From: Malacoraja senta | Taxonomy: Eukaryota | Assembly (NCBI GenBank): GCA_038087875.1 | Contig: CM075987.1 | Span: 25,298,001 to 25,362,000 of the forward strand | Direction: 5' to 3' | Length of the DNA: 64,000 bases | In this document: positions 1 through 62,523 of the stretch, piece by piece | How positions within the stretch are numbered: position 1 is the stretch's first letter | How the letters are laid out: each line of letters begins with the position of its first letter | Made by a program: the position numbers and the translations under genes | The notes under the pieces: generated by a model | Seen by the model: the letters and a program-made list of their open reading frames with translations, nothing else | Told to the model about the DNA's origin: nothing | Databases searched by the model: none

Positions 1-1135
1 TGTGGGGAGAATGGGGTTGAGAAGGGAAATGAGATCAGCCGTGATAGAATGGAGGAGCAGACTCGATGGGCCAAATGGCCTAATTCCACTCCTATTTCTT
101 CAAGATAAAGTTGAAGGCTTGCAAGTTCATTCCTTCAGGAATATGTCAAGGTTCCCCTTGTTCAAGGTACTGTAGGTTCTTCCACAAGACTTTGGGGTGA
201 AAGGGTGGATGGCCATTTCTGAAGGATGGCTCTTGGACATGCCTGTTGCCTGTTTCCATATGGCTTTGTCAGTGTAGTGCAAACCTGCCTGAACGCAGCC
301 CAATGTGAATAACTACCAGGGCATGAGATGGTGGAAGTAAGCTAGGACCTTCTGTGTCTGTTGCTCGTCCACGAGTGATGATAAATACATGCTGTGTGTG
401 TTTGTGTATCGTTCCCCCATAAATCCGGCAAAATTGACATATTCCTCGCAGGTAATGCAAAATCATCAGAGGAATAGATCGGGCAGATGCACAGAGTCTC
501 TTGCCCAGAGTATGGGGATCGAGCACTGGAGGACATACAGTAGGTTTAAGCTGAGGGGGGAAAGATTTAATAGAAACATAGAAAATAGGTGCAGGAGGAG
601 GCCATTCGGCCCTTCGAGCCAGCACCGCCATTCATTGATCGTCCCCTATCAATAACCCGTGCCTGCCTTCTCCCCATACCCCTTGACTCCACTAGCCCCT
701 AGAGCTCTATCTAACTCTCTCGTAAATCCATCCAGTGACTTGGCCTCCACTGCCCTCTGTGGCAGGGAATTCCATAAATTCACAACTCTCTGGGTGAAAA
801 CGTTTTTTCTCACCTCAGTCTTAAATGACCTCCCCTTTATTCTAAGACTGTGGCCCCTGGAACCTGAGGGGTAACATTTTCACACACAGGGTGGTGGGAG
901 TATGGAACAAGGAGGTAGTTGAGGCAGAGACTTTGCCTCAACCACAGGAGGTAGTTGAGGCAGAGACTTTCCCAGCATTTAAGAAACAGTTAGACAGGTG
1001 CATGGATAGAACAGGTTTGGAGGGATATGGACCAAACGCGGACAGGTTGGACGAGTGCAGCTGGGACATGTTGGCCGGTGTGGGCAAGTTGGGCCGAAGG
1101 GCCTGTTTCCACGCTGTATAACTCTATGACTCTAA
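1..1135. mobile_element. Cluster of CR1 (HER1-like) LINE 3' fragments in both orientations, nested
   Basis: Recurrent 3'-end motifs (tggcctaattc..ctcctat; gaaacatagaaaataggtgcagg at about 573 on minus; FTQRVV..WN..P-type translation); tail actctatgactct at about 1121-1133. Confidence 0.8.
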
Positions 1136-1395
1136 TTCAAGTACTTGTCTAATACTTCTTAAATGTGTGTGAGAATCTCTGCCTCCACAAATGTTCCCCT
1201 CAGGCAGAACATTCCAACTACTAACCCCCCACTGGGTGAAAAAAGATCTTCCTCAGATCACCTCTAAACATTTCATCTTTTGCCACAAACCTTTAACCGG
1301 ACTTTACTGGTTTTACACTAAACTTTATTCCCTTTATCAAGTATCTGCACACTGTGGATGGTTCGATTGTAAGCATGTGCAGTATAGTCTTTTCA

Positions 1396-1581
1396 CTTCT
1401 TCTTCTTTTTGTGTCCAAATGTTGACCTCGCTGTCATCGTCCGTCCTGAAAAGGACACGAGCTTCCGGCGACAATCAGTGGGAGCCATCACTTGTCGCAA
1501 TAGATGATGGTGGTAGCAGAATTAGCTCGGGATACTTCCAGTTTCCAGCCCCGTGACGTGGACGCTTCTGCTATGGGGCCC
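1396..1581 (-). mobile_element. Short retroposon with a 5' HDV-like ribozyme and (GAA)n tail (type B)
   Basis: Minus strand starts GGGCCCC-A-TAGCAGAA and ends ggacacaaaaagaagaagaag. It interrupts a Rex1-like 3' UTR. No clear TSD. Confidence 0.75.
1514..1581 (-). ncRNA. HDV-like (CPEB3-like) self-cleaving ribozyme motif
   Basis: P1 GGCCCC/GGGGCU; P2 UAGCAGAA/UUCUGCUA; P3 GCG/CAC (1 mismatch); L3 UCCACGU; GG for P1.1; J4/2 CUAA. Confidence 0.85.
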
Positions 1582-1956
1582 GATGGGCACGCAACAAAAA
1601 GCTTTTCATTGCACCTAAAGCATTAAAACTAAAACTAATCTAAACTAGACTAACATACTCCAGCTTTAGATTCTTCTGGTATGGGGAAAAGATTTCAGCT
1701 GCCTACCAGATCTATGCCTCTCATAATTTAGATAGCAGGGAGATAGATGTTGCACTAACAAAAATACAAAGCTGCGATCATTCAAACGTTGTTGAGGTAG
1801 GTTTATGGGGAGCATGCAATATAAGTCTCAAACAAAACATATAAGAGGAATTTAAAAACCCCCCACAGTGAATGGGAAACTGTGAAAGGCCCATTCTTCT
1901 TCTTTTACAGACACGTCGTACGTGCAAGGTTGCTCGTGAAAATCAATGTGATGATC

Positions 1957-2815
1957 CAGTAATCTCTCATTATAACGGAGCATAGAGGGGGCGAAATGGT
2001 GTCTGTTATTGCCGATTGTCTGCTATAACCAAGTGTAATATGTGGCGTTTCATGTGTAGAGACCCTACAATAACATTTATTGTGAGCAAGAGCTGCACTG
2101 AAAGCTGAAACATAAGTTCATAAGTTATAGGAGCAGAATTAGGCCATTCGGCCCATCAAGTCTATCATTCAATCATGGCTGATCTATCTCTCCCTCCTAA
2201 CCCCATTCTCCTGCCTTCTCCCCACAACCCCTTGACACCCGTACTAATCACGAAACTATCTATTGGCCCTGTCCCACTGTACGAGTTCATTCAAGTGCTC
2301 TCCCGGGTTTAAAAAAAAAATCAGACTCGTGGTAAGCACGTGGAATGAACGTAGCGGGTACGTCGGAGCTCGGGGACGTCTCTTAGCGGCTCGTAACGCT
2401 AACGGCAGGTACTCGGGAAGACTCGCTAACGGCAGGTAAGCTCGGGAAGACTCGTGAAGATTTTTCAACATGTTGAAAAATGTCCACGAGAGCCCCGAGT
2501 ACCGACGAGCGGCCATTACCGTAAATCTCCGAGTTCGAATCAGGGCAAACTCGGGGAGAACTCTTGAATGAACTCGTACAGTGGGACAGGGCTTTATCTC
2601 TGCCATTAGAATATCCATTGACTTGGCCTCCACAGCCTTCTGTGGCAATGAATTCCACCGATTCACCACCCTCTGACTAAAGAAATTCCTCTTCATCTCC
2701 TTCCTAAAGGTGCGTCCTTTAATTCTGAGGCTGTGCCCTCTGGTCCTAGACTCTCCCACTAGTGGAAACAACCAAAATTTGTTGTAAAGAGGTCTGTAAA
2801 AACGAGGGTTTACTG
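1957..2815. mobile_element. Degenerate Tc1/mariner (Tigger-like) non-autonomous element containing nested CR1 and Harbinger-like insertions
   Basis: Imperfect terminal inverted repeats cagtaatctctcattataacgg and (reverse complement) cagtaaaccctcgtttttacag; TA TSD not preserved. Confidence 0.45.
2264..2594. mobile_element. PIF/Harbinger-like MITE
   Basis: Long TIRs gccctgtcccactgtacgagttcattcaag / cttgaatgaactcgtacagtgggacagggc; inserted into a CR1 3' end at a T/A-rich site. Confidence 0.75.
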
Positions 2816-3125
2816 TTATAGCAAAGCTCTGACAATCAGGACCAAAGGGCAAGTATGTTTTGGATTAAATGGTGGCTTGGGTGATATGCGCAGTGGACTG
2901 ACATAAAATACATACTTTTGTAGAGGATGTGTTCTTAGAAAATATTTAGTAAAATAAAAAAGCCAGGCACATTCTCTTCGGGATACTTTGGTACGATGGA
3001 AGGGAACTGATGTGCCAATTGTGTAGCACAAATAAAGATTTGGAAATCATGGACACATATCCGAAAGAGTCGACGGCATTATAGTGAAGAGATGTCAGTT
3101 GATCGTTCATATTACAGTCAGCCGT

Positions 3126-3153
3126 CTGAAGAAGGGTCTCGACCCGAAACGTC
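3126..3153 (+). ncRNA. Minimal hammerhead ribozyme motif in a Penelope-like pLTR
   Basis: CUGAAGA-A-GGGU(CUCG)ACCC-GAAA-CGUC. Confidence 0.65.
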
Positions 3154-4789
3154 AGCCATTCCTTCTCTCCAGAGATGCTGCCTGTCGGGCTGAGATGAGG
3201 AAAAACTTTTTCACCCAGAGAGTTGTGAATCTGTGGAATTCTCTGCCACTGAAGGCAGTGGAGGCCAATTCACTGGATGTTTTCAAGAGAGAGTTAGAAA
3301 TAGCTCTTCAGGCTAAAGGAATCAAGGGCTATGGGGAAAAAGCAGGAACGGGGTACTGATTTTGGATGATCAACCATAATCATATTGAATGGCGGTGCTG
3401 GCTCGAAGGGCCGAATGGCCTACTCCTGCACCTATTTTCTATGTTTCTATCTTTCTATACTCCAGCTTTTTGTGCCTATCTTCAGTTTAAACCAGCATCT
3501 GCAATTCCTTCCTTCACATATTATTTATTATTCCTCCAAAGAGAAAGCGTTTTGTAGGATTTTACTTTCAAATCCTACAAATTTACTTTCAAGAGTTACA
3601 TAGAGCTCTAGGGGCTAGTGGAGTCAAGGGATATGGGGAGAAGGCAGGCACGGGTTATTGATAGAGGACGATCAGCCATGATCACAATGAATGGTGGTGC
3701 TGGCTCAAAGGGCCGAATGGCCTCCTCCTGCACCTATTTTCTATGTCTAAATCGACATTCAGGATTTTCACGGCAATGGGTTGAATGTTGCATTTTTTAT
3801 CTTTAAAGTCTTATTGACTCCAATAAAATAAATGAATTATACACCACTCAGCAGCTCACTTTAGTTCACCATTGCAAGGTGCTGAATGAAACAATGCTTC
3901 TTTCCATTGTAAAATGAATCCTGCTGCTGTTTCAACAACTCCTTTTGATATTGGGTGAATGATAATCAGAGCATTGTCAACACTGCCACTGTCAAATGCT
4001 AATGAGGATGTTTCCACTAGTGGGAGAGCCTAGGACCAGAGGTCACAGCCTCAGAATTAAAGGACGTTCCTTTGGGAAGGAGATGAGGAGGAATGTTTTT
4101 TTGTCAGAATGTGGTGAATCTGTGGACATCTTTGCCACAGAAGGCTGTGGAGGCCAAGTCAGTGGATAGTTTTATGGCAGAGATGGATTTATTCTTGATT
4201 AGTACGGGTATCAGGGGTTATGGGGAGAAGGCAGCAGAATGGGGTTAGGAGGGAGAGATAGATAAGCCATGGTGGGGTAGACTTGATGGGCTGAATGGCC
4301 TAATTCTACTCCTATGACTTATGACCTTATGAAAACAATACATTGCTTGACAGGAGAGTTTGCACATGGTTCATTTGTCGACTGGATTATTTGTTTGGCA
4401 TTGAGCTCCTAACACTTATGAACACGTGGGCTTCTATCTATAAGTGGAAGATTGTGTTGCTAGTTCTGGATGTTGTGCATGTGTGGAGATCTGATCAGCG
4501 GTAGTAATGGTCTTTCAAGAATTGCCTTCAGTTATATTGTGCCAGATAGATCAGCCATGATTGAATGGCAGGGTAGACTTGATGGGCCGAATGGCCTAAT
4601 TCTGCTCCTATTACTTATGAACTTATGAACTAATTACACCTTGCAATATAATAGTGACTCAATTTTGTCATAACCACTTTGGTTCTGCAGTAAGTTATGA
4701 AATTAAATAAGCATCCCCCCCCCAAATATGATCTTAAGGGTAAACTTGATTTAATTGAGAACGAGGCTGAATTTTATGCAATATTACTT

Positions 4790-9215: not shown

Positions 9216-10688
9216 TCTATATTACTAAAAGTCTGATCTTGACCACTTCCTGTTCTGTATATTGATTTTAGAAAAAACGCTGCCACTTACGGCTGTGATT
9301 TTTGGCCATCTTTCTCAGAGTCCCCCTCCGCTGCGCAGGACAAGAGGATTTTTCCCATTGATGAAAAATAAAAGAGTTATTCGTGTTTAAAAAATGTTGA
9401 GATTCTCTCTCCTGAAGGCGACGCCACTTCCGGAGGGACTATAAAACCCGGAAGCGTTGAGTGCCTCAGTCAGTCTCTGCAAGATGGGGGAGCGAGAGAG
9501 TCATGTCTCTCAGTCTGAGCTGTGAATCACACTGAACACATGTCTACTAAACTGTGAGTGGTTTTACTGACCTGTCAGTGCCCTTAATGTGGTTTGAAAA
9601 TATAGTTTGGAAATGCTAAAGCTGTGTTGCCTTTGGTTTGGAATAGCTAAAGCTGTGTTGCCTTTGGTTTGGAAATGCTAAAGATGTGTTGCCTTTGGTT
9701 TGGAAATGCTAAAGCTGTGTTGCCTTTGGTTTGGAAATGCTAAAGCTGTGTTGCCTTTGGTTTGGAAATGCTAAAGCTGTGTTGTCTAATTAAAGTTACC
9801 TTGCCTAATTAAAGTTGCCTTGCCTAATTAAAGTTGCCTTGCCTAATTAAAGTTGCCTTGCCTAATTAAAGTTGCCTTGCCTAATTAAAGTTGCCTTGCC
9901 TTCTATATAATTAAGGGTCTAATCTTGACCACTTCCTGTTTGCTCTTTATATTGATTTTAGAAAAAATGCTATCACGTACGGCTGTGATTTTTGGCCATC
10001 ATACGCAGAGTCCCCCTCCGCTCCTCAGGTGCCAAGGATTTTTCCCATCGATGAAAAATAAAAGAATAATTAGTGTTTTAAAAATGTTGAGATTCTCTGT
10101 CCTGTCAATCATGCCATGAAGGCCACGCGCCTTCTGGTGGGAGGGGGGAGGGGGGAGGAACTATAAAACCCAGAAGTGTGGGCGTGGCTCAGTCTCTGCA
10201 AGATGGAGGAGGGAGAGGTCACGACTCGCTGTCTTTAGTGGCCTTGCACCCTGCTTGAAGTGGTATGAAACTGCATTTAAATTTGGTGGCCTTGCACCCT
10301 GAAACTGCACTTGAATTTGGTGGCCTTGCACCCTGCTTGAAATGGTATGAAACTGCACTTGAATTTGGTTGCCTTGCACCCTGCTTGAAATGGAATTTCA
10401 AGGAATAGCCGTGAGTCAACTGCCCGCCCACCAGCCATGAGTGAGTGAGCTGCCGGCAAAACAGGCTTGAGTGTCTGAGGCGCCAGCCCAAGAATCCATT
10501 CGGCCCACAATGTCCATACTAGTCCTCTGGAAACCAGTCCCTTCAGCCCACAACACCCATACTAGTGCTCCAGAACCCTCCCCCCCCACTGGCCACCAAT
10601 ATTGGAATTGGTGGAGAGGTGGAATATTGCGTTGGGGGACCAGCCCTCCCGTGTGATGGTGGGACCCAACGGGTCCCACTTAGTCTAG
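9216..10688 (+). mobile_element. Non-autonomous Helitron
   Basis: 5' TC (tctatattactaaaagt) after A9215; 3' hairpin gggaccc-aac-gggtccc then CTAG (10685-10688) followed by T; no TSD; internal minisatellites. Confidence 0.85.
9607..9900. repeat. Tandem arrays inside the Helitron: 31-bp unit x about 5.5, then 19-bp unit x about 6
   Basis: Units ctaaagctgtgttgcctttggtttggaaatg and taattaaagttgccttgcc, with no spacers. Confidence 0.95.
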
Positions 10689-17749: not shown

Positions 17750-18306
17750 ACATGATAAGGAAATAATGTTTAGCCCAAGGTAAAGCCAGTAAAGTCCAAT
17801 CAAGGATAGTCCGAGGGTCAGAAACAGGCCCTTCGGCCCAACAGCGATCCCCGTACAATAGACGATAGACAATAGGTGCAGGAGTAGGCCATTCGGCCCG
17901 TCGAGCCAGCACCGCCATTCAATGTGATCATGGCTGATCATCCCCAATCAGTACCCCTTTCCTGCCTTCTCTATACTAATGCTATCCTACACACTAGGGA
18001 TAATTTCACCTTTTTGTTTTAACAATGCCAATAAACCTACAAACCTCTACGTCTTTGGAATGTGCGAGGAAACCGGAGCACCAGGAGAAAACCCACGCGG
18101 TCACGGGGGGAAGGTACAAACTCCGTACAGGCAGCACCCGTAGTCAGGATCGAACCCGGGTCAATTGTCCCTAGTGTGTGTAGGGTAGTGTTAGTGTTAG
18201 TGTTAATGTGCGCAGGGAGCGCTGGTCGGCACGGACTCGTTGGGCCGCAGGGCCTGCTTCCACGCCATATATCTCAACTAAAGTAAAACTGAACTGTGAA
18301 CCACAA

Positions 18307-19503
18307 GACTTTCAGAAGGCTTTCGACAAGGTCCCACATAAGAGATTAGTATACAAATTTAAAGCACACGGTATTGGGGGTTCAGTATTGATGTGGATAG
18401 AGAACTGGCAGGCAAACAGGAAACAAAGAGTAGGAGTAAACAGGTCCTTTTCACAATGGCAGGCAGTGACTAGTGGGGTACCGCAAGGCTCAGTGCTGGG
18501 ACCCCAGCTATTTACAATATATATTAATGATTTGGATGAGGGAATTGAATGCAACATCTCCAAGTTTGCGGATGACACGAAGCTGGGGGGCAGTGTTAGC
18601 TGTGAGGAGGATGCTAGGAGGCTGCAAGGTGACTTGGATAGGCTGGGTGAGTGGGCAAATGCATGGCAGATGCAGTATAATGTGGATAAATGTGAGGTTA
18701 TCCACTTTGGTGGCAAAAACAGGAAAGTAGACTATTATCTGAATGGTGGCCGATTAGGAAAAGGGGAGATGCAACGAGACCTGGGTGTCATGGTACACCA
18801 GTCATTGAAAGTAGGCATGCAGGTGCAGCAGGCAGTGAAGAAAGCGAATGGTATGTTAGCATTCATAGCAAAAGGATTTGAGTATAGGAGCAGGGAGGTT
18901 CTACTGCAGTTGTACAGGGTCTTGGTGAGACCACAGCTGGAGTATTGCGTTCAGTTTTGGTCTCCAAATCTGAGGAAAGACATTCTTGCCATAGAGGGAG
19001 TACAGAGAAGGTTCACCAGATTGCTTCCTGGGATGTCAGGACTTTCATATGAAGAAAGACTGGATAGACTCGGCTTGTACTCGCTAGAATTTAGAAGATT
19101 GAGGGGGGATCTTATAGAAACGTTCAAAATTCTTAAGGGGTTGGACAGGCTAGATGCAGGAAGATTGTTCCCGATGTTGGGGAAGTCCAGGACAAGGGGG
19201 CACAGTTTAAGGATTAAGGGGAAATCCTTTAGGACTGGGATGAGAAAAACATTTTTCACACAGAGAGTGGTGAATCTCTGGAACTCTCTGCCACAGAAGG
19301 TAGTTGAGGCCAGTTCATTGGCTATATTTAAGAGGGAGTTAGATGTGGCCCTTGTGGCTAAAGGGATCAGGGGGTATGGAGAGAAGGCAGGTACAGGATA
19401 CTGAGTTGGATGATCAGCCATGATCATATTGAATGGCGGTGCGGGCTCGAAGGGCCGAATGGCCTACACCTGCACCTATTTTCTAAGTTTCTATGTTTCT
19501 ATG
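18307..19503 (+). mobile_element. 5'-truncated CR1 LINE; open ORF2 reverse-transcriptase C-terminal half (to 19404)
   Basis: DFQKAFDKVPH, SGVPQGSVLGP, KFADD, ERVQ-type RRFTR motifs; (ttctatgt)n tail. Confidence 0.95.
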
Positions 19504-27273: not shown

Positions 27274-27310
27274 CGTCCAACATGTTGACATGAAATGGTC
27301 GCCCGACGCG

Positions 27311-27374
27311 TCACAGAATGCATCGTGTCATCGTTTCCAGGGATCACCACGAGGAGGCTTCTGTCATGATCCCC
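27311..27374 (-). ncRNA. HDV-like ribozyme motif, catalytic C apparently mutated to U
   Basis: P1 GGGGAUC/GAUCCCU; P2 ACAGAA/UUCUGU; P3 GCC/GGU; L3 UCCUCGU; GG; J4/2 UGCA. Confidence 0.8.
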
Positions 27375-29172: not shown

Positions 29173-32100
29173 ATGCATGACACCACACAAAAGAACCTAG
29201 GAGAATCTCATTTTGTAGTTGGAATATAAGAGGTATTAACGAACCTATCAAAAGGGGTAAGATATTAGCTCAGCTAAAAATGTATAATTTCAGACATTAC
29301 CTTCCTACAAGAACACACCTAAAACCTCAGGACCAAGTTAGGCTGAGGGCGAAATGGATAGTCAAACATACCACTCTTCATTCACTTCAAAATCTAGAGG
29401 CACGTCAATTATCATAAGAAAAGGTATACCATTTAAAGCAAAGAATATTATAACAGATATAGAAGGGAGATACCTAATAGTTAATGGAGAAATCCATGAC
29501 ACTCCACTTACTTTGGTAAATATATATGCCCCTAACTTTGATAACCCCCACTTTTTCAATAAAATCTTCAATATAATTGCAGAGTCAAACTATCAAAATG
29601 TTATAATAGGCGGAGACTTTAACTGTGTTTTAGATCCGTACTTAGATAAATCAAGTCAAAAACAGAGAGGGAATATGAAATCGAAAACTGGGGAACTCCT
29701 CAATACCTACATAAATAACACTAATATAGCAGATGTTTGGAGAATTGTGAATCCAACTGGCAGGGAATTTTCGTTTTACTCAATGGTACATAAGACATAC
29801 TCACGTATAGACTACTTTCTGCTGGATACAAAATTAATCCCCCAAACATCTAATGCAATATACCATACAAATTCAATTTCAGACCATTCTCCACTAACTT
29901 TCTTTTTAAAACTGGAAGGATTGTCTAAGAATAATTCATTCTGGAGATTTAACTCTCAAATTTTAAAAGATCCACAAGCGAGTATATATTTAAAAGAACA
30001 AATGGAGGTCTTTTTTCAAACAAATGATACTTCAGATATATCGCCTACTTTACTTTGGGAATCTTTTAAAGCATACATTAGGGGTATCATAATTTCATAT
30101 CAAGCTTTTCAAAATAAAAAGAATAAGAATGAACAAAGACAGTTAGAAGAACTTATTAGACAAATGGATATAGATAATGCTAAAGATCCATCAATAGATA
30201 AACATAATAAAATAATAATTTTAAAATTTAAATTAAATAAATTATTATCTGCCAAACTTATAAGACTTTTTCAAATTACAAAACAAGAGCACTTTGAATT
30301 TGGGATAAAACCGCATAAACTTTTGGCTCGCCAGCTAAAAAAACGAGAAAAGGAACATACTATACCAAAGATCAAATCAGATAAAGGGGAATTATTAACA
30401 ACACCGAAGGATATTAATAAAAGATTTGCGCAATTTTACGAGAATTTGTATACATCTAAAACGATAATTTGATTCCAATAATATCACAAAGTTCTTGGAT
30501 ACCTGTAATCTTCCAAAGTTAGAGCTGAAGGAACAAGAGGAACTGGGTGCACAAATCTCAATTAAGGAATTAGAAGATACAATAAACTCACTAAAAAATG
30601 GAAAAACACAGGCCCTGATGGATTTACTAATGAATTTTATAAAAGCTTTTATGATAAAATAATACCAAGATTACAAAAAATGTACCAATAACGCTTTTAA
30701 AAAACGAATACTACCTGATACATTAGTGGAATCAACGATTACATTAATACCTAAGAAAAATAAGGATTTAGAAGAACCTGGCTCATATAGAGCTATAGCA
30801 TTGTTAAACACAGATCAAAAAATATTAGCGAAAACATTAGCCAGAAGATTAAGTAAATACATTAGGAAATTAATAAACCCAGATCAGACAGGGTTTATCC
30901 CTAAGAGATACTCTTCTAATAATATGAGACGTCTACTCAACATAATGCACTCACACAAATCTGAAGATCAAGAATTATCAATTATTTCGCTGGATGCTGA
31001 AAAAGCATTTGATCAAGTAGAATGGAATTATATGGATAAAGTATTACAAAAATTTCAACTGGGAGAGATTTTATTTTATGGATTAAGTTACTATATAACA
31101 AACCTACAGCTAGAATACTTACTAATAACATATTATCCTCGAAATTCCAACTATCAAGGGGAAATAGACAAGGATGCTCATTATCACCACAGCTGTTTGC
31201 TCTCATTATTGAACCGCTAGCAGAAAAAATTAGAATACACCCTGATATTCATGGATATAATACTAAAGACTCATATAATAAAATATCTTTATACGCGGAT
31301 GATATATTATTGTATATACAAAACCTCAAATAACTATACCAAATATATTAAATTTAATTGAAGACTTCGGATCTTTTTCTGGATATAGAATAAATTGGAA
31401 TAAAAGTGAAATTATGTCAATAAAACCGAAAGATTCAACACATCTTTTAAAATTCCCTTTTAAAATAGCTACAGAAAAATTTAAATATTTGGGAATCGAA
31501 ATTACCAGAACATATCAAGGTATGCTCAGGGCAAATTTTGACCCCCTACTTAATAAACTGAATACATTAATTAAATTCTGGAAAACGCTCCCGATGTCTT
31601 TAATAGGCCGAATAAACGCAATAAAAATGATCTTTTTACCACAAATTTATACCTATTTCAATCAATTCCTATATACTTACCTAAGAAGTTTTTTAAAAAA
31701 ACTCGACTCAGATATCACTAATTTTATATGGGACTATAAATCACATAGAATACAAAAAACCCATCTGAATAAACCTAAAGTATTGGGGGGTCTAGCACTA
31801 CCTATTTTATGTATTATTATTGGTCAGTAAATATTAAAAACATGATTCAACTGATGGATAACTCCGCCCAGCAAGTAGACTGGATTGTAATGGAGAAAGA
31901 GGATTGCTCCTCTAGAAACATTGGAGCGATCCTCCTCTCTCCAATGAAATTGAATAACATAAACTATAATAAGAACCCAATTATTCATAGTACAATCCGT
32001 ATTTGGAAACAAATAAAACAAAATTTAAAATTAAGAAACTTATCACTTTTATTACCTATAGTCAATAACCCTTCGTTTAGTCCTTCTATTATAGATAAAG

Positions 32101-44671: not shown

Positions 44672-44725
44672 GGGGTGGGAGATTGAAACCTTCACGTGGT
44701 CCACCCTGTTTCGACTAATGCAATC
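44672..44725 (+). ncRNA. Minimal HDV-like ribozyme (54 nt)
   Basis: GGGGUGG-GA-GAUUGAA-ACC-UUCACGU-GGU-CCACCCU-GU-UUCGA-CUAA-UGCAAUC. Confidence 0.85.
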
Positions 44726-44807
44726 AACCTGGCGCGCACAAACAGAAGATCAAACAGAACAAGTTGTCCTACAACTTTAGGCTGTGCACGCCACACGCAA
44801 GAAGAAG
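44672..44807 (+). mobile_element. Ribozyme-headed short retroposon (type A) with (GAA)n tail
   Basis: TSD aagaagctggt at 44661-44671 and 44808-44818; inserted in a Penelope-like 3' region. Confidence 0.9.
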
Positions 44808-45634
44808 AAGAAGCTGGTGCGACTTGTGTGGGGGAGGGATGGAGAGAGAGGGAATGCCGGGTTACTTGAAGTTAGAGTGCCTGTGTTGTTTGCTCATGCA
44901 CACCTTCCACGGGCACATCTACTCCAGTTACTTTCACTTGCATCACTCTCCACCCAACCCTCCTCCTCATGGTGCGGCAGAGTTGCTCCCTCACAGCGCC
45001 AGAGACCCGGGTTCGATCCTGACGATGGGTGCTGTCTTCACGGAGTTTGTACGTTCTCCCTGTGACCTCATGGGTTTTCTCCAGGTTTCCTTGTTTCCTC
45101 CCACACTCCGCACAGATAAGTACCCGTAGTCAGGATCGAACCTGGGTCTCTGGCGCTGTAAGGCAGACAACTCTACCGCTGCGCCATCGTACTTACTTCA
45201 GCAACCAGAGGAAGCCAAACCTATTACCTGATCCTGTCAAAATGTTGCATTTTGCATTGCGATTTCCAGGCATAGCAAAATTAATTTTTCAAGTCTTTAT
45301 TCACACAGGCATTGCCTTATTTGTAGAGCAGATAGCTTGCCACTAAATACGTATTGCACTTGTATCAATAGTCTTCTTTCAATTCTTCATAAATGTTCTA
45401 ATTGCTATTATTAAGATTTATATTTGGTTACCGTGACTTTCCTATTCTATATGGCGGTGCTAAATCCTTAAAATCCATTCCCCTTGTCTGTTTAAACAAT
45501 CTTATCAATTAAAAATTACTAAAATATATCCTTCGGTTCGTTGAGAACATTGCAATCTCTCAGCTTCAGGAAGGCACTGATAGAAGTTCATTCGGAATGA
45601 TGCTCCTCGACTGGTGTTTATTTCAAGAAGGCCT

Positions 45635-52093: not shown

Positions 52094-52186
52094 GGGATGC
52101 AAGCAGAAGCCCCCACGTGGCGCATCCCAAGCAATGCTGACGACAGAAACTGTACCACAGTGACTGACTGAAGTCGCCAATTCTGC
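52094..52186 (+). ncRNA. HDV-like ribozyme motif with extended P4, P1.1 degenerate
   Basis: P1 GGGAUGC/GCAUCCC; P2 GCAGAA/UUCUGC; P3 GCC/GGC; L3 CCCACGU; CGAC..GUCG in P4; J4/2 CCAA. Confidence 0.75.
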
Positions 52187-52263
52187 AACCACCGACCGTC
52201 AACCGTCACTGACCGACCGGAAAGACGTGATATAGAAGATGGCTGGACACGATGAAGAAGAAG
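52094..52263 (+). mobile_element. Ribozyme-headed short retroposon (type D) with (GAA)n tail
   Basis: TSD-like agt(t/a)taggtt at 52083-52092 and 52262-52271; ends ggacacgatgaagaagaag. Confidence 0.75.
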
Positions 52264-53155
52264 TATAGGTTCAAGATAAAGTGCAGAAACAGGCCCCTTC
52301 AGCTCACCGTATCCGCGCCGACCAGCGATCCCCGCAAACAAACACCACCCGACACACACTAAAGACAATTTACAATTTTACCAAGCCAATTTGCCTGCAA
52401 ACCTGTACGTCTTTGGAGCGTGGGAGTAAACCGAATCACAATAGACAATAGGTGCAGGAGTAGGCCATTCGGCCCTTCAAGCCAGCACCGCCATTCAATA
52501 TGATCATGGCTGATCATGCACCTGGGGAAAACCCACGCAGGTGACGGGGAGAAGGGGAGAAGTCTAGAGCTATGAAACCTGCTATGTCCAAGAGTTCAAG
52601 TGAGTTTTATTGTCATGTGTCCCTGATAGGACAATTTAATTCTTGCTTTGCTTTAGCACACCAGAACACAGTAGGCACATGTTTAGGGCAACCAGGCATA
52701 CAAGGGGGAGAACAATCCTCCGGAACATAAATAAACTGAGCGTTAAGTCCTTTCGGTGCAGAGACAGCGACAGATGGTCAAAGACAGTTTTAATCTATAA
52801 ATTGCATGGTTTACCTCAATATTTTGGATGTGAACACTGGCTCCATGGAATAAGTGCTGCCATTGACATGCACTGCTTTGAATATTCGAGATCTGCTTTG
52901 AATATTCAACCATCCTTGTTGTGACAAGGTGATTCACATCAAAATTGTTAAACGCCTCTGAGGAGAAAACCCAATTTCCAAAACATCCTCCTTATGGATG
53001 GGGGATTAACTGGTCCGAATAGAAGTACTATACTAACTTCAAGTAGCCCTTGCTTTCCCTCTCTCTCCAGTCCCTCCCCCTTCCCAGTTCTCCTTCCAGT
53101 CTTACTGTCTCCGACTACATTTTATCTCTGTTCCGCCCACTCCCCTGACATCAGT

Positions 53156-53823: not shown

Positions 53824-54908
53824 CATAGAAACATAGAAACATAGAAACATGGAAAATAGGTGCAGGAGTAGGCCATTCGGCCCTTCGAGCCTGCACCGCC
53901 ATTTAATATGATCACGGCTGATCATCCAACTCAGTATCCTGTACCTGCTTTCTCTCCATACCCCCTGATCCCTTTAGCCACAAGGGCCACATCTAACTCC
54001 CTCTTAAATATAGCCAATGAACTGGCCTCAACTACATTCTGTGGCAGAGAATTCCAGAGATTCACCACTCTCTGTGTAAAAAATGTTTTTCTCTTCTCAG
54101 TACTAAATGATTTCCCCTTTATCCTTAAACTGTGACCCCTTGTTCTGGACTCCCCCAACATCGGGAACAATCTTCCTGCATCTAGCCTGTCCAACCCCTT
54201 AAGAATTTTGTAAGTTTCTATAAGATCCCCCCCTCAGTCTTCTAAATTCCAGCGAGTACAAGCCGAGTCTATCCAGTCTTTCCTCATATGAAAGTCCTGA
54301 CATCCCAGGAATCAGTCTGGTGAACCTTCTCTATACTCTCTCTATGGCAAGAATGTCCTTCCTCAGATTAGGAGACCAAAACTGTGCGCAATACTCCAGG
54401 TGTGGTCTCACCAAGACCCTGTACAACTGCAGTAGAACCTCCCTGCTCCTATACTCAAATCCTTTTGCTATGAATGCTAACATACCATTCGCTTTCTTCA
54501 CTGCCTGCTGCACCTGCATGCCCACTTTCAATGACTGGTGTACCATGACACCCAGGTCTCGTTGCATCTCCCCTTTTCCTAATCGGCCACCATTCAGGTA
54601 ATAGTCTACTTTCCGGTTTTTGCCAGCAAAGTGGATAACCTCACATTTATCCACATTATACTGCATCTGCCATGCATTTGCCCACTCACCCAGCCCATCC
54701 AAGTCATCTTGCAGCCTCCTAGCATCCTCCTCACAGCTAACACTGCCCCCCAGCTTCGTGTCATCCGCAAACTTGGAGATGTTGCATTCAATTCCCTCGT
54801 CCAGATCATTAATATATATTGTAAATAGCTGAGGTCCCAGCACTGAGCCTTGCGGTACCCCACTAGTCACTGCCAGCCATTCTGAAAAGGACCCGTTTAC
54901 TCCTACTC
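53824..54908 (-). mobile_element. 5'-truncated CR1 LINE, same subfamily as 18307-19503
   Basis: SGVPQGSVLGP, KFADD; (ttctatgt)n tail; one frameshift near 54230. Confidence 0.95.
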
Positions 54909-61231: not shown

Positions 61232-62330
61232 GGTACACAAAAATGCTGGAGAAACTCAGCGGGTGCAGCAGCATCTATGGAGCAAAGGAAATAGGCAACG
61301 TTTCGGGCCAAAACCCTTCTTCAGACTGATAGGGGGTGGGGGGAAGAAAGGAAAAAAGGAAAAAGGCGGAGGAGGAGCCCGAGGGCTGGGGGAGGGGAGG
61401 AGACAACCAGAGGGCTGATGAAGGGGAGGGGACAGCAAGTGCTAGCAGAATTGGGAGAATTCAATGTTCAAGCCCCCAGGATGTAGACTGCCCAAGCGGA
61501 ATATGAGGTGCATTTCCTCCAATTTACGGTGTTGCTCGTTGTGGCCATGGAGGAGACCCAGGACAGAGAGGTCAGATACGGAATGGGAGGGTGAGTTGAA
61601 GTGCTGAGCCACCGGGAGCACAGGTTGGTTATTGCGGACGGACCGGAGGTGTTCGGCGAAACGATCGCCAAGCCTCCGCTTGGTCTCACCGATGTAGATC
61701 AGCTGGCATCTAGAGCAGCGGATGCAATAGATGAGGTTGGAGGAGATGCAGGTGAACCTCTGTCGCACCTGGAACGACTGCTTGGGTCCTTGAATGGAGT
61801 CGAGGGGGGAGGTGAAGGGACAAGTGTTGCATCTCTTGCGGTTGCAAGGGAAAGTACCCGGGGAGGGGGTGGTATGGGAGGGAAGGGAAGAATTGACAAG
61901 GGAGTTACGGAGGGAGCGGTCTTTGCGGAAGGCAGACATGGGGGGAGATGGGAAGATGTGGCGAGTGGTGGGGTCACGTTGGAGGTGACGAAACTGACGG
62001 AGGATCACTTGTTGTATGTGACGGCTGGTGGGGTGAAAGGTGAGGACTAGGGGGACTCTGCCCTTGTTGTGAGTGGGGGGATGGGGAGAGAGAGCAGTGT
62101 TGCGGGGTATGGCAGAGACCCTGGTGCGAGCCTCATCTATGGTGGAGGAGGGGAACCCCACGTTCCCTGAAGAATGAGGACATTTCAGATGCCCTGGTGT
62201 GGAACGCCTCATCCTGGGAGCAGATGCGGCGTAGACGGAGGAATTGGGAGTGGGGGATGGAGTCCTTACAGGAAGCAGGGTGGGAAGAAGTGTAGTCCAG
62301 ATAGCCATGGGAGTCGGTGGGTTTGCAGGT
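61232..62330 (-). mobile_element. Penelope-like retroelement, 5'-truncated (RT tail, Cys motif, GIY-YIG) with pLTR
   Basis: KPTDSHGYLDYTSSHP; CNRKRCNTC; SNLIYCIRCSRCQLIYIGETKRRLGDRFAEH..GLNIEFSQF. Confidence 0.95.
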
Positions 62331-62523
62331 GTGGAAATAGGAATGATGTGTCAAACATCCACCAAATATTCTAAAGATAGACACAAAATGCTTTACGTCT
62401 TTGGAGTGTGGGAGGAAACTGAAGATCTCGGAGAAATACCACACAAGTCACAGAGAGAACGTACAAACTCCATACAGACAAGCACCCATAGTCAGGATCG
62501 AACCCGGGTCTCTGGGGCTGCGA

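Follow-up and report, generated by a model that had tools for sequence, protein, structure and literature searches.

A short retroposon of Malacoraja senta with a probable self-cleaving head of the CPEB3 ribozyme type

Conserved self-cleaving RNAs are rare in mammals, and one of the very few, the ribozyme of the CPEB3 gene, has been linked to memory. A locus of the cartilaginous fish Malacoraja senta bears on the question of its origin. Within the 64,000-nucleotide (nt) stretch of contig CM075987.1 analysed here (positions 25,298,001 to 25,362,000, hereafter the window), the minus strand from 1580 down to 1514 reads much like the mammalian ribozyme, and an earlier note on this DNA, made from the letters alone, had described it as a retroposon-borne relative. 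What is this sequence, and how does it relate to the mammalian one? The best explanation, to which we assign a probability of about 85%, is that 1580–1514 is the self-cleaving, CPEB3-type head of a short, non-autonomous retroposon of the kind lacking long terminal repeats (non-LTR), mobilised by a long interspersed nuclear element (LINE) of the same genome.

The Rfam covariance model of the CPEB3 ribozyme (RF00622), whose use the earlier note had proposed, aligns over its full length (1–78) to positions 1591–1515 of the minus strand, with 32.1 bits and E = 7.7e-7 in a search of 401 bases, and no other Rfam family of the ribozymes called HDV-like, after the hepatitis delta virus, matches in the same 401 bases around the copy at E≤10. 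The curated gathering cut-off of RF00622 is 35 bits, so that the copy falls 2.9 bits short, which is why a scan of all 64 kb of the window at the Rfam gathering cut-offs lists nothing. With R1, a covariance model of our own built from the ribozymes of this genome's families, the copy reaches 63.2 bits. The comparison by letters made in the earlier note is largely borne out: the minus-strand letters from 1581 down to 1514 are present exactly as quoted there, the CPEB3 sequence given there agrees with the Rfam consensus and with the elephant CPEB3 sequence in the supplement of PMC8233481, and 24 of the first 29 nt match, the same count as claimed. For the last 12 nt, 10 of the 11 positions covered match, the final G being covered by neither reference. 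A chance origin of the match is excluded by the expected count of the 18-nt core pattern in the window (0.03) and by the recurrence of the first 36 nt of the element, which are found, allowing up to 3 mismatches, 1,230 times in the genome and not once in the reversed control (the first 100 occurrences listed are exact).

From the sequence, the RF00622 alignment and the pair counts in an alignment of 25 ribozymes considered below, we predict an HDV-like ribozyme of CPEB3 type at 1514–1580 on the minus strand, with its first base (G1) at 1580. Paired region P1 would be formed by 1580–1575 and 1552–1547, P2 by 1572–1566 and 1521–1515, and P3 by 1565–1563 and 1555–1553, the middle pair of the latter being broken by A1554; loop L3 occupies 1562–1556. 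The joining segment J1/4 is a GG at 1546–1545, which can form P1.1 with C1561 and C1560, and is followed by the P4 region (1544–1526), a putative catalytic cytosine at 1525 and J4/2 at 1524–1522. The features surrounding the presumed cleavage site are likewise present in the letters, as G1580 can pair with U1547 and C1525 is followed by UAA and then by the 3' strand of P2. The P3 mismatch reported earlier is real, since 1554 is an A in this copy and a G in 20 of the 29 other copies of the family shown.

That the ribozyme is borne by a retroposon, as had been proposed, follows from its recurrence in the genome. We searched window bases 1700–1400 against the animal's own genome (1.94 Gb, 6,182 contigs), which gave 2,013 first-look candidates, of which 40 were scored, at 91–100% identity. 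Among the 39 scored matches other than the query itself, 32 start at query base 121, which corresponds to window position 1580, and the rest at bases 116–122. The 30 loci that were fetched have a common part of about 195 nt, running from GGCCCCATAG... to ...ATGGACACGAAAAGAAGAAGA, and unrelated flanks; we refer to this non-autonomous element, of about 185–195 nt, as family A. In 16 of these 30 copies, a perfect target-site duplication, 8 nt or longer, ends at the first G and resumes right after the (GAA)n tail, as against none of the 30 when a segment 40 nt further upstream is used as control, and imperfect duplications are visible in several further copies; L018/L019 and L022/L023 are segmental duplicates among the loci. 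Both the matches and the duplications converge on 1580, and the element therefore starts at this position. The earlier note had placed the start at G1581, which is in fact a base of the flank; family A, and hence its RNA, begins at 1580, and an HDV-like ribozyme with such a P1 would be expected to cut 5' of that position.

The organisation of family A is thus that of a ribozyme-terminated retroposon, with the ribozyme first in the element, unrelated sequences upstream and target-site duplications around the copies. It is not a classical short interspersed nuclear element, because its head is a ribozyme and not a tRNA-, 7SL- or 5S-type promoter region for RNA polymerase III: ARAGORN finds no tRNA-like gene in 1300–1700, and Rfam gives no 7SL, 5S or tRNA match at E≤10 near the window copy. 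Nor is it a single intronic orthologous copy, as RF00622 is in mammals, since its copies, dispersed and with target-site duplications, number over 1,200. Family A is in addition more similar to the mammalian ribozyme than the window copy would suggest. Six of eight family-A loci exceed the RF00622 cut-off, and the undecayed copies, in which P3 is an intact GCG/CGC, score 37.5–42.8 bits as compared with 32.1; the concern voiced in the earlier note, that the family might turn out less CPEB3-like than this one copy, is thereby removed. Contigs of four other organisms also carry 1412–1580, with thousands of contigs on the element, and their flanks past 1580 are mutually unrelated (111, 146, 18 and 8 loose ends, with an agreement of 0.37–0.48); eight other organisms share 15–80% of the sampled words from window 1–4000. 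The presence of family-A contigs in four further organisms indicates that the family is common to several related species.

The window copy itself is decayed. From aligned genomic loci, the whole copy extends over 1396–1580 (minus strand) and comprises the ribozyme head, a body of about 100 nt and a tail that reads ...GGACAC AAAAAGAAGAAGAAG at 1416–1396. About 10 nt present in other copies ahead of the tail are missing from it, as is a target-site duplication, and contigs of other organisms continue at 1416 into the usual family-A tail. Decay had been suspected from the P3 mismatch and from a P1 that seemed one pair short: the G-to-A change in P3, the deletion and the missing duplication agree with it, and the short P1 must be set aside as a sign of decay, as a P1 of 6 base pairs (bp) is common to the whole of family A. 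The copy is located inside another repeat, whose two parts at 1314–1383 and 1581–1621 are recognised by a high contig depth (at 1314–1383 and 1580–1621). Some contigs of other organisms join 1378 to 1588 through about 36 different letters, so that the family-A copy sits within this repeat and seems to have replaced about 36 nt of it. We also considered the heptamer TGAAAAG, which occurs once 21 nt upstream and a second time past the tail, as a duplication enclosing an uncleaved 5' extension. This was rejected because the flank belongs to the other repeat and the junction, taken as the 19 nt upstream of G1 plus the start of the head, occurs only once in the genome.

The predicted fold was evaluated on an alignment of 25 ribozymes from seven families (A1), in which the scored structure consists of P1, P2, P3 and five P4 pairs. 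Standard pairs are found in 87.4% of the cells, as against 34–50% when the partners are slid by 1–3 columns, and 72 cells are changed on both sides, as against 2–10 with slid partners; two-sided changes are seen in 12 of the 21 pairs. In P2, 95.2% of the cells are paired and four of the seven pairs are compensatory, with the variants AGCAGAA/TTCTGCT, GGTAGAA/TTCTACC, AGCAGGA/TCCTGCT, AGAAGGA/TCCTTCT and GGAAAGA/TCTTTCC. The lower pairing of P4 (73.7%) results from the short P4 of family A being out of register with the other rows. The cytosine of J4/2 ahead of the 3' strand of P2 is at least 90% conserved. As for P1.1, the replacement of U.U by C-G that had been pointed out earlier is confirmed, as UCC in L3 and GG in J1/4 are both peculiar to family A (this was read by eye, A1 being shifted by one column there). 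Altogether, P1 and P2 interleaved, P3 inside P1 and a possible P1.1 make up what is predicted to be a nested double pseudoknot, in the window copy as in the families.

The likeness to CPEB3 extends beyond family A. A genome-wide look with RF00622 led to 59 scored candidates, of which 51 are at E≤1e-3 and 39 over the cut-off, the best having 64.2 bits, and we sorted the top 20 hits (L031–L050) and ten more (L051–L060) into families B to G; all ten loci tested from these families exceed the cut-off (37–61 bits). At least nine ribozyme families with a CPEB3-type core are present in the genome, and their P1, P2 and P4 covary from family to family. Common to them are the P3–L3 sequence AGCG-TTCACGT-CGCG, in which family A has a C at the second position of L3, the CTGT after P1, and a GCGAAT or GCTAAT ahead of the 3' strand of P2; family G has no P4. 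The 15-mer of the P3–L3 core, with at most one mismatch, occurs 3,199 times in the genome and 104 times in the control. Family D is small and old (four first-look matches, at 86–88% identity), and its P4 stem CAGATTC/GAATCTG is the one found in the CPEB3 consensus, without any change in L051 and with 1–3 changes in L042, L044 and L059. A 301-nt query made for this family was discarded, as it mostly matched an unrelated repeat 97 nt downstream. Short ribozyme-headed retroposons without a polymerase III head form many parallel families in one vertebrate genome.

Family B is of a different nature, as it is a young 3.1-kb element whose full-length copies are 97–98% alike and whose CPEB3-type ribozyme scores 61–64 bits with RF00622. 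One copy has a single open reading frame (ORF) of 1,014 amino acids (aa) with Exo_endo_phos, Exo_endo_phos_2 and RVT_1 domains, the frame being open from within the ribozyme. This LINE ends about 35 nt past the stop codon in ...CAAAGACACGAAAAGAAGAA and is bounded by target-site duplications. When its 3' end (...AGACACGAAAAGAAGAA) is compared with that of family A (...GGACACGAAAAGAAGAAGA), the last 18 nt or so are common to both, and the 3' ends of family G and of a further family, H, are close variants of the LINE end. Family A thus shares its 3' end with a partner in the same genome that encodes a reverse transcriptase, from which we infer mobilisation by this partner. The LINE fits an RTE-like element in its length of 3.1 kb, its one ORF of about 1,000 aa, its 3' untranslated region (UTR) of about 35 nt, its microsatellite tail and its named relatives, which come from sea urchin, amphioxus, teleosts, Anolis, psyllids and moths at 45–55% identity; the nearest LINE cluster in the protein atlas is labelled Chordata. 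Upstream of one full-length copy of the LINE (L041:7953–8127, minus strand), 26 nt of the ribozyme that reach from where P1 ends to the far side of P3 occur five times in tandem ahead of the full head.

These elements suggest the following mechanism. A family-A element, having no tRNA-type head of its own, would be transcribed within any transcript that reads through it. Its first 67 nt would then fold as an HDV-like nested double pseudoknot and cut the RNA 5' of G1 (1580), freeing an RNA that begins with the element's own first base. The 3' end of this small RNA (...GACACGAAAAGAAGAAG) being that of the 3.1-kb LINE of RTE-like build, which encodes an endonuclease and a reverse transcriptase and itself carries such a ribozyme, the LINE protein could copy it into new sites by target-primed reverse transcription, which would generate the target-site duplications. 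The window copy is presumably dead, with its G-to-A change in P3, its deletion of about 10 nt ahead of the tail and its position inside another repeat without a duplication. Cleavage in vivo is suggested by the position of the 5' ends of the copies, which coincide with the cut predicted from the letters, and read-through transcription and mobilisation by the LINE are likewise proposed steps.

Relatives of these heads are also found outside this genome. A profile of the LINE protein (A2) run against metagenome contigs gave 80 loci, and R1 matches seven of them at E≤1. Three of these, from three metagenome data sets (L067–L069), carry the same 78-nt ribozyme (68.4 bits with R1) and, since its sequence is identical, are not independent. 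About 60 nt downstream of it follows a LINE ORF with 52% identity to that of the LINE of this genome, and the element has the tail GACACGAA(TCA)n and a 14-nt duplication. L067 scores 55.6 bits with RF00622 and shares with the consensus 35 of its first 37 positions and 10 of its last 11; outside P4, in which it differs, 45 of 48 positions agree with CPEB3, including P1 (7 bp), J1/2 and P2 (7 bp). Weaker R1 matches, at L072 and L080, keep the core and have a different P1 and P2.

A number of observations weigh against the interpretation given above. The window copy does not reach the Rfam cut-off, and one of its P3 pairs is broken. Folding restricted to nested structures gives z = +0.60, +0.07, −1.79 and −1.06 and yields P2 but not P1 for family A, while it recovers P1, P3 and P4 for family B and L067; as the structure is a pseudoknot, these nested-only energies are uninformative. 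The assignment of the partner to RTE is provisional, being based on its organisation and named relatives. Two further LINE relatives (L064:960–1024 and L082:953–1019) have another HDV-like head, GGGGTAC.../GTACCCC, which scores 30–31 bits with the F. prausnitzii model, whose cut-off is 44. The L3 pattern U-Y-Y-A-C-G-U also appears in the consensus of that bacterial model (HDV-F-prausnitzii). In viral contigs, the 16-nt core has 25 matches, of which 24 fit the model only over the core used as query and one, L161:362–431 (minus strand) on a phage-like contig, is a complete double-pseudoknot candidate. It has the P1, P3 and L3 of family A together with another P2 (a perfect 7 bp) and another P4 (10 bp), scores 24.6 bits with RF00622, and lies just upstream of, and divergent from, a gene of the XRE-type helix-turn-helix class. 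Finally, P2 covaries freely among the sister families, so that the identity of the family-A P2 with that of CPEB3 may be either retention or coincidence. The earlier note had taken this identity as favouring homology; the argument is weaker than stated, and homology draws stronger support from family D and from the metagenomic LINE.

Some of these observations provide the substance of an alternative in which the ribozyme of the retroposon is real and its likeness to CPEB3 arose by convergence, from the narrow range of workable P3-L3-J4/2 cores combined with a GC-rich P1. The recurrence of the L3 pattern in the bacterial model and of the core in a phage-like contig with a different P2 and P4 indicates that the core alone is no proof of ancestry and that part of the likeness is functional constraint; in addition, P1, P2 and P4 vary freely among the families of one genome. 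The degree of likeness is nevertheless not the same, as L161 remains at 24.6 bits with RF00622 and the retroposon families reach 37–64. Moreover, L067 shares P1, J1/2 and P2 with CPEB3 besides the core, family D shares the stem of P4, which is the least constrained helix, and no other HDV-like model of Rfam matched at permissive thresholds. We regard convergence as unlikely for these reasons, and the scores of the heads, the shared variable P1 and P2 of L067, the P4 of family D and the lack of a match to other HDV-like models lead us to consider it probable, as judged from the sequences, that the CPEB3 ribozyme and the heads of these LINEs and short elements descend from a common ancestor.

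A second alternative accepts the retroposon and denies that its head is a working ribozyme, which would instead be an internal promoter or a protein-binding structure, the uniform 5' ends being transcription starts. Heads of this kind can serve both ends, as the first 77 nt of L1Tc and NARTc are described as a promoter and a ribozyme in the available parts of PMC3383444 and PMC3185411. A promoter would not need the covariation observed in the P1–P2 pseudoknot, and in fact compensatory changes between the families preserve each of the four helices of the double pseudoknot, the cytosine of J4/2 is conserved and G1 pairs with a U. In addition, the same class of sequence cleaves in mammals, according to the literature on CPEB3. 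We therefore find this alternative very improbable.

If common descent is accepted, the direction of transfer has to be considered. In the available text of PMC8233481, the CPEB3 ribozyme is described as a single intronic copy restricted to mammals. Ribozyme-headed relatives of the LINE are widespread and the CPEB3 copy is single and confined to mammals, which favours a transfer from LINE to intron, a direction we think somewhat likelier than not to be the correct one. The opposite, that the LINE took its ribozyme from a host intron of CPEB3 type or from a mammal-like source, is the least probable of the explanations considered. LINE 5' ends do pick up host sequence, but CPEB3-type or related ribozymes head LINE relatives that are 36–52% identical in protein on unrelated metagenome contigs, and named relatives of the LINE occur in sea urchin, amphioxus, fishes, a lizard and insects. 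This wide spread makes the association of ribozyme and LINE look older and wider than mammals. Exaptation in mammals is likely. In its fullest form, the proposal is that an RTE-type LINE, or a short element dependent on one, inserted into the CPEB3 intron of a mammalian ancestor and that its 5' head was domesticated as the CPEB3 ribozyme, with the fish families, still mobile, and the metagenome relatives as living outgroups; this we favour with modest confidence.

Three other candidates of the same kind are present in the window and add the P3 variants GCC/GGC, ACC/GGT and GCC/GGT (families H, I and J, respectively) to those of the alignment. The family-H retroposon at 52094–52265 (plus strand; R1 31.0 bits over 52094–52192) has P1 GGGATGC/GCATCC, P2 AGCAGAA/TTCTGC, P3 GCC/GGC and a long P4 region; its tail reads ...GGACACGATGAAGAAGAAG, and TAGGTT is found on both flanks of 52094–52265. 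It gave 396 first-look candidates, and of the 39 scored matches other than the query itself, 22 begin at query base 31 (52094), the others being a few bases off with the exception of three. The family-I retroposon at 44672–44813 (plus strand; R1 23.5 bits over 44672–44726) is about 140 nt long, lacks P4 and combines P3 ACC/GGT and L3 TTCACGT with a (GAA)n tail, and 44672–44813 is flanked on both sides by AGCTGGTG. For this family there are 2,424 first-look candidates, and query base 32–33 is the starting point of 27 among the 39 scored matches to other loci. The copies of families H and I thus start mostly at or beside G1 and end in (GAA)n. Family J, at 27310–27374 (minus strand), is an HDV-like candidate with 26.7 bits in R1, P1 GGGGATC/GATCCCT, P3 GCC/GGT and L3 TCCTCGT.

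The window contains in addition remains of other retroelements at 18184–19404, 29342–31830, 54331–54906 and 61442–62350, three of these stretches having reverse transcriptase or endonuclease domains and one being an ORF whose match to GIY-YIG is weak (21.2 bits, the cut-off being 22.6) and which may be Penelope-like. Elsewhere in the assembly, the mitochondrial genome, with a period of 16,723 bp, is present once as a contig of its own and a second time as four or more units joined head to tail, probably through an error of assembly; the two contigs are C2915 (COX1 at 10356, 27079, 43802 and 60525) and C6182. Among named sequences, this COX1 agrees best with those of the sharks Squatina japonica (95%) and Carcharhinus longimanus (94%), as against no more than 93% for teleosts and 86–88% for mammals, which fits a cartilaginous fish.

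The findings provide a concrete candidate source lineage for the CPEB3 ribozyme and outgroups for the reconstruction of its ancestral state, together with a natural mutational series, with variants of P1, P2, P4 and P1.1, for a well-studied ribozyme. They also indicate that the label 'mammalian' in Rfam is too narrow, as sequences passing RF00622 head thousands of mobile elements in a cartilaginous fish and a related LINE elsewhere. If the CPEB3 ribozyme is indeed a domesticated LINE head, its ancestral state could be rooted, and an origin of the ribozymes of the hepatitis delta virus group from the same retroposon pool would become testable.

With respect to what has been published, we found in the literature neither a retroposon family associated with the CPEB3 sequence type nor a report of this type outside mammals; Ruminski 2011, Webb 2009 and Webb & Luptak 2011 may contain such a statement. 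The core sequence strings do not occur in the literature text searched, and 'CPEB3-like' occurs in one unrelated paper. In the available main texts of PMC9901934 and PMC10274809 no CPEB3 sequence was found, and the available main text of the theta-ribozyme paper (PMC10879173) prints no L3 motif. The available part of a review (PMC7761336) proposes in general terms that amniotes took over their intronic hammerhead and HDV-type ribozymes from mobile elements; it names no source family for CPEB3 there, whereas the present elements are a concrete candidate lineage with likeness at the level of the sequence.

Ribozyme-terminated non-LTR retroposons are already known, and what is new here is the membership of the ribozyme in the CPEB3 family. 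Ruminski et al. 2011 and Webb et al. 2009 reportedly dealt with the ribozyme-terminated R2, RTE and Baggins elements. That these elements carry HDV-like ribozymes at their 5' ends is established, as far as the available text of PMC6765202 goes, and the resemblance to the present elements is close: the ribozyme is at the extreme 5' end, and the element would, as we propose here, be co-transcribed and freed by self-cleavage; sequences are conserved downstream of the ribozyme and variable upstream; and the LINE, at about 3.1 kb, combines a single ORF with a short 3' UTR and a microsatellite tail. The difference lies in the ribozyme, which is here of the CPEB3 sequence type.

For short dependent elements, the closest parallels are NARTc of Trypanosoma cruzi and the R2 SIDEs of Drosophila. 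That L1Tc and its short dependent elements have HDV-like heads is established in what is available of PMC3185411, PMC3383444 and PMC3414825, and according to the same sources such a short element keeps the ribozyme head and the 3' end of a LINE and is moved by the LINE protein, much as we suggest for family A. Those elements are derivatives of a LINE by internal deletion, whereas family A shares with its LINE the type of ribozyme and the last 18 nt or so, and differs from it in body, P1 and P4; the host is moreover a vertebrate, with many parallel families.

The comparison with the mammalian CPEB3 ribozyme, reportedly the work of Salehi-Ashtiani et al. 2006, is the one that matters most for the question raised by this locus. 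Both follow the double-pseudoknot plan, with P3 and J4/2 identical or nearly so, and L3 is one base off in family A and identical in most of the other families. The P2 of family A is the same as in CPEB3, as are P1, J1/2 and P2 in L067 and the P4 stem in family D. Unlike the mammalian ribozyme, which is a single copy in intron 2, those of the fish are many and stand at the 5' ends of mobile elements, and family A differs in its 6-bp P1, in a P1.1 with C-G in place of U.U and in an unrelated, weak P4. The presumed roles are distinct as well, the ribozyme of family A being thought to process the 5' end of a retroposon RNA and that of CPEB3 to sever an intron.

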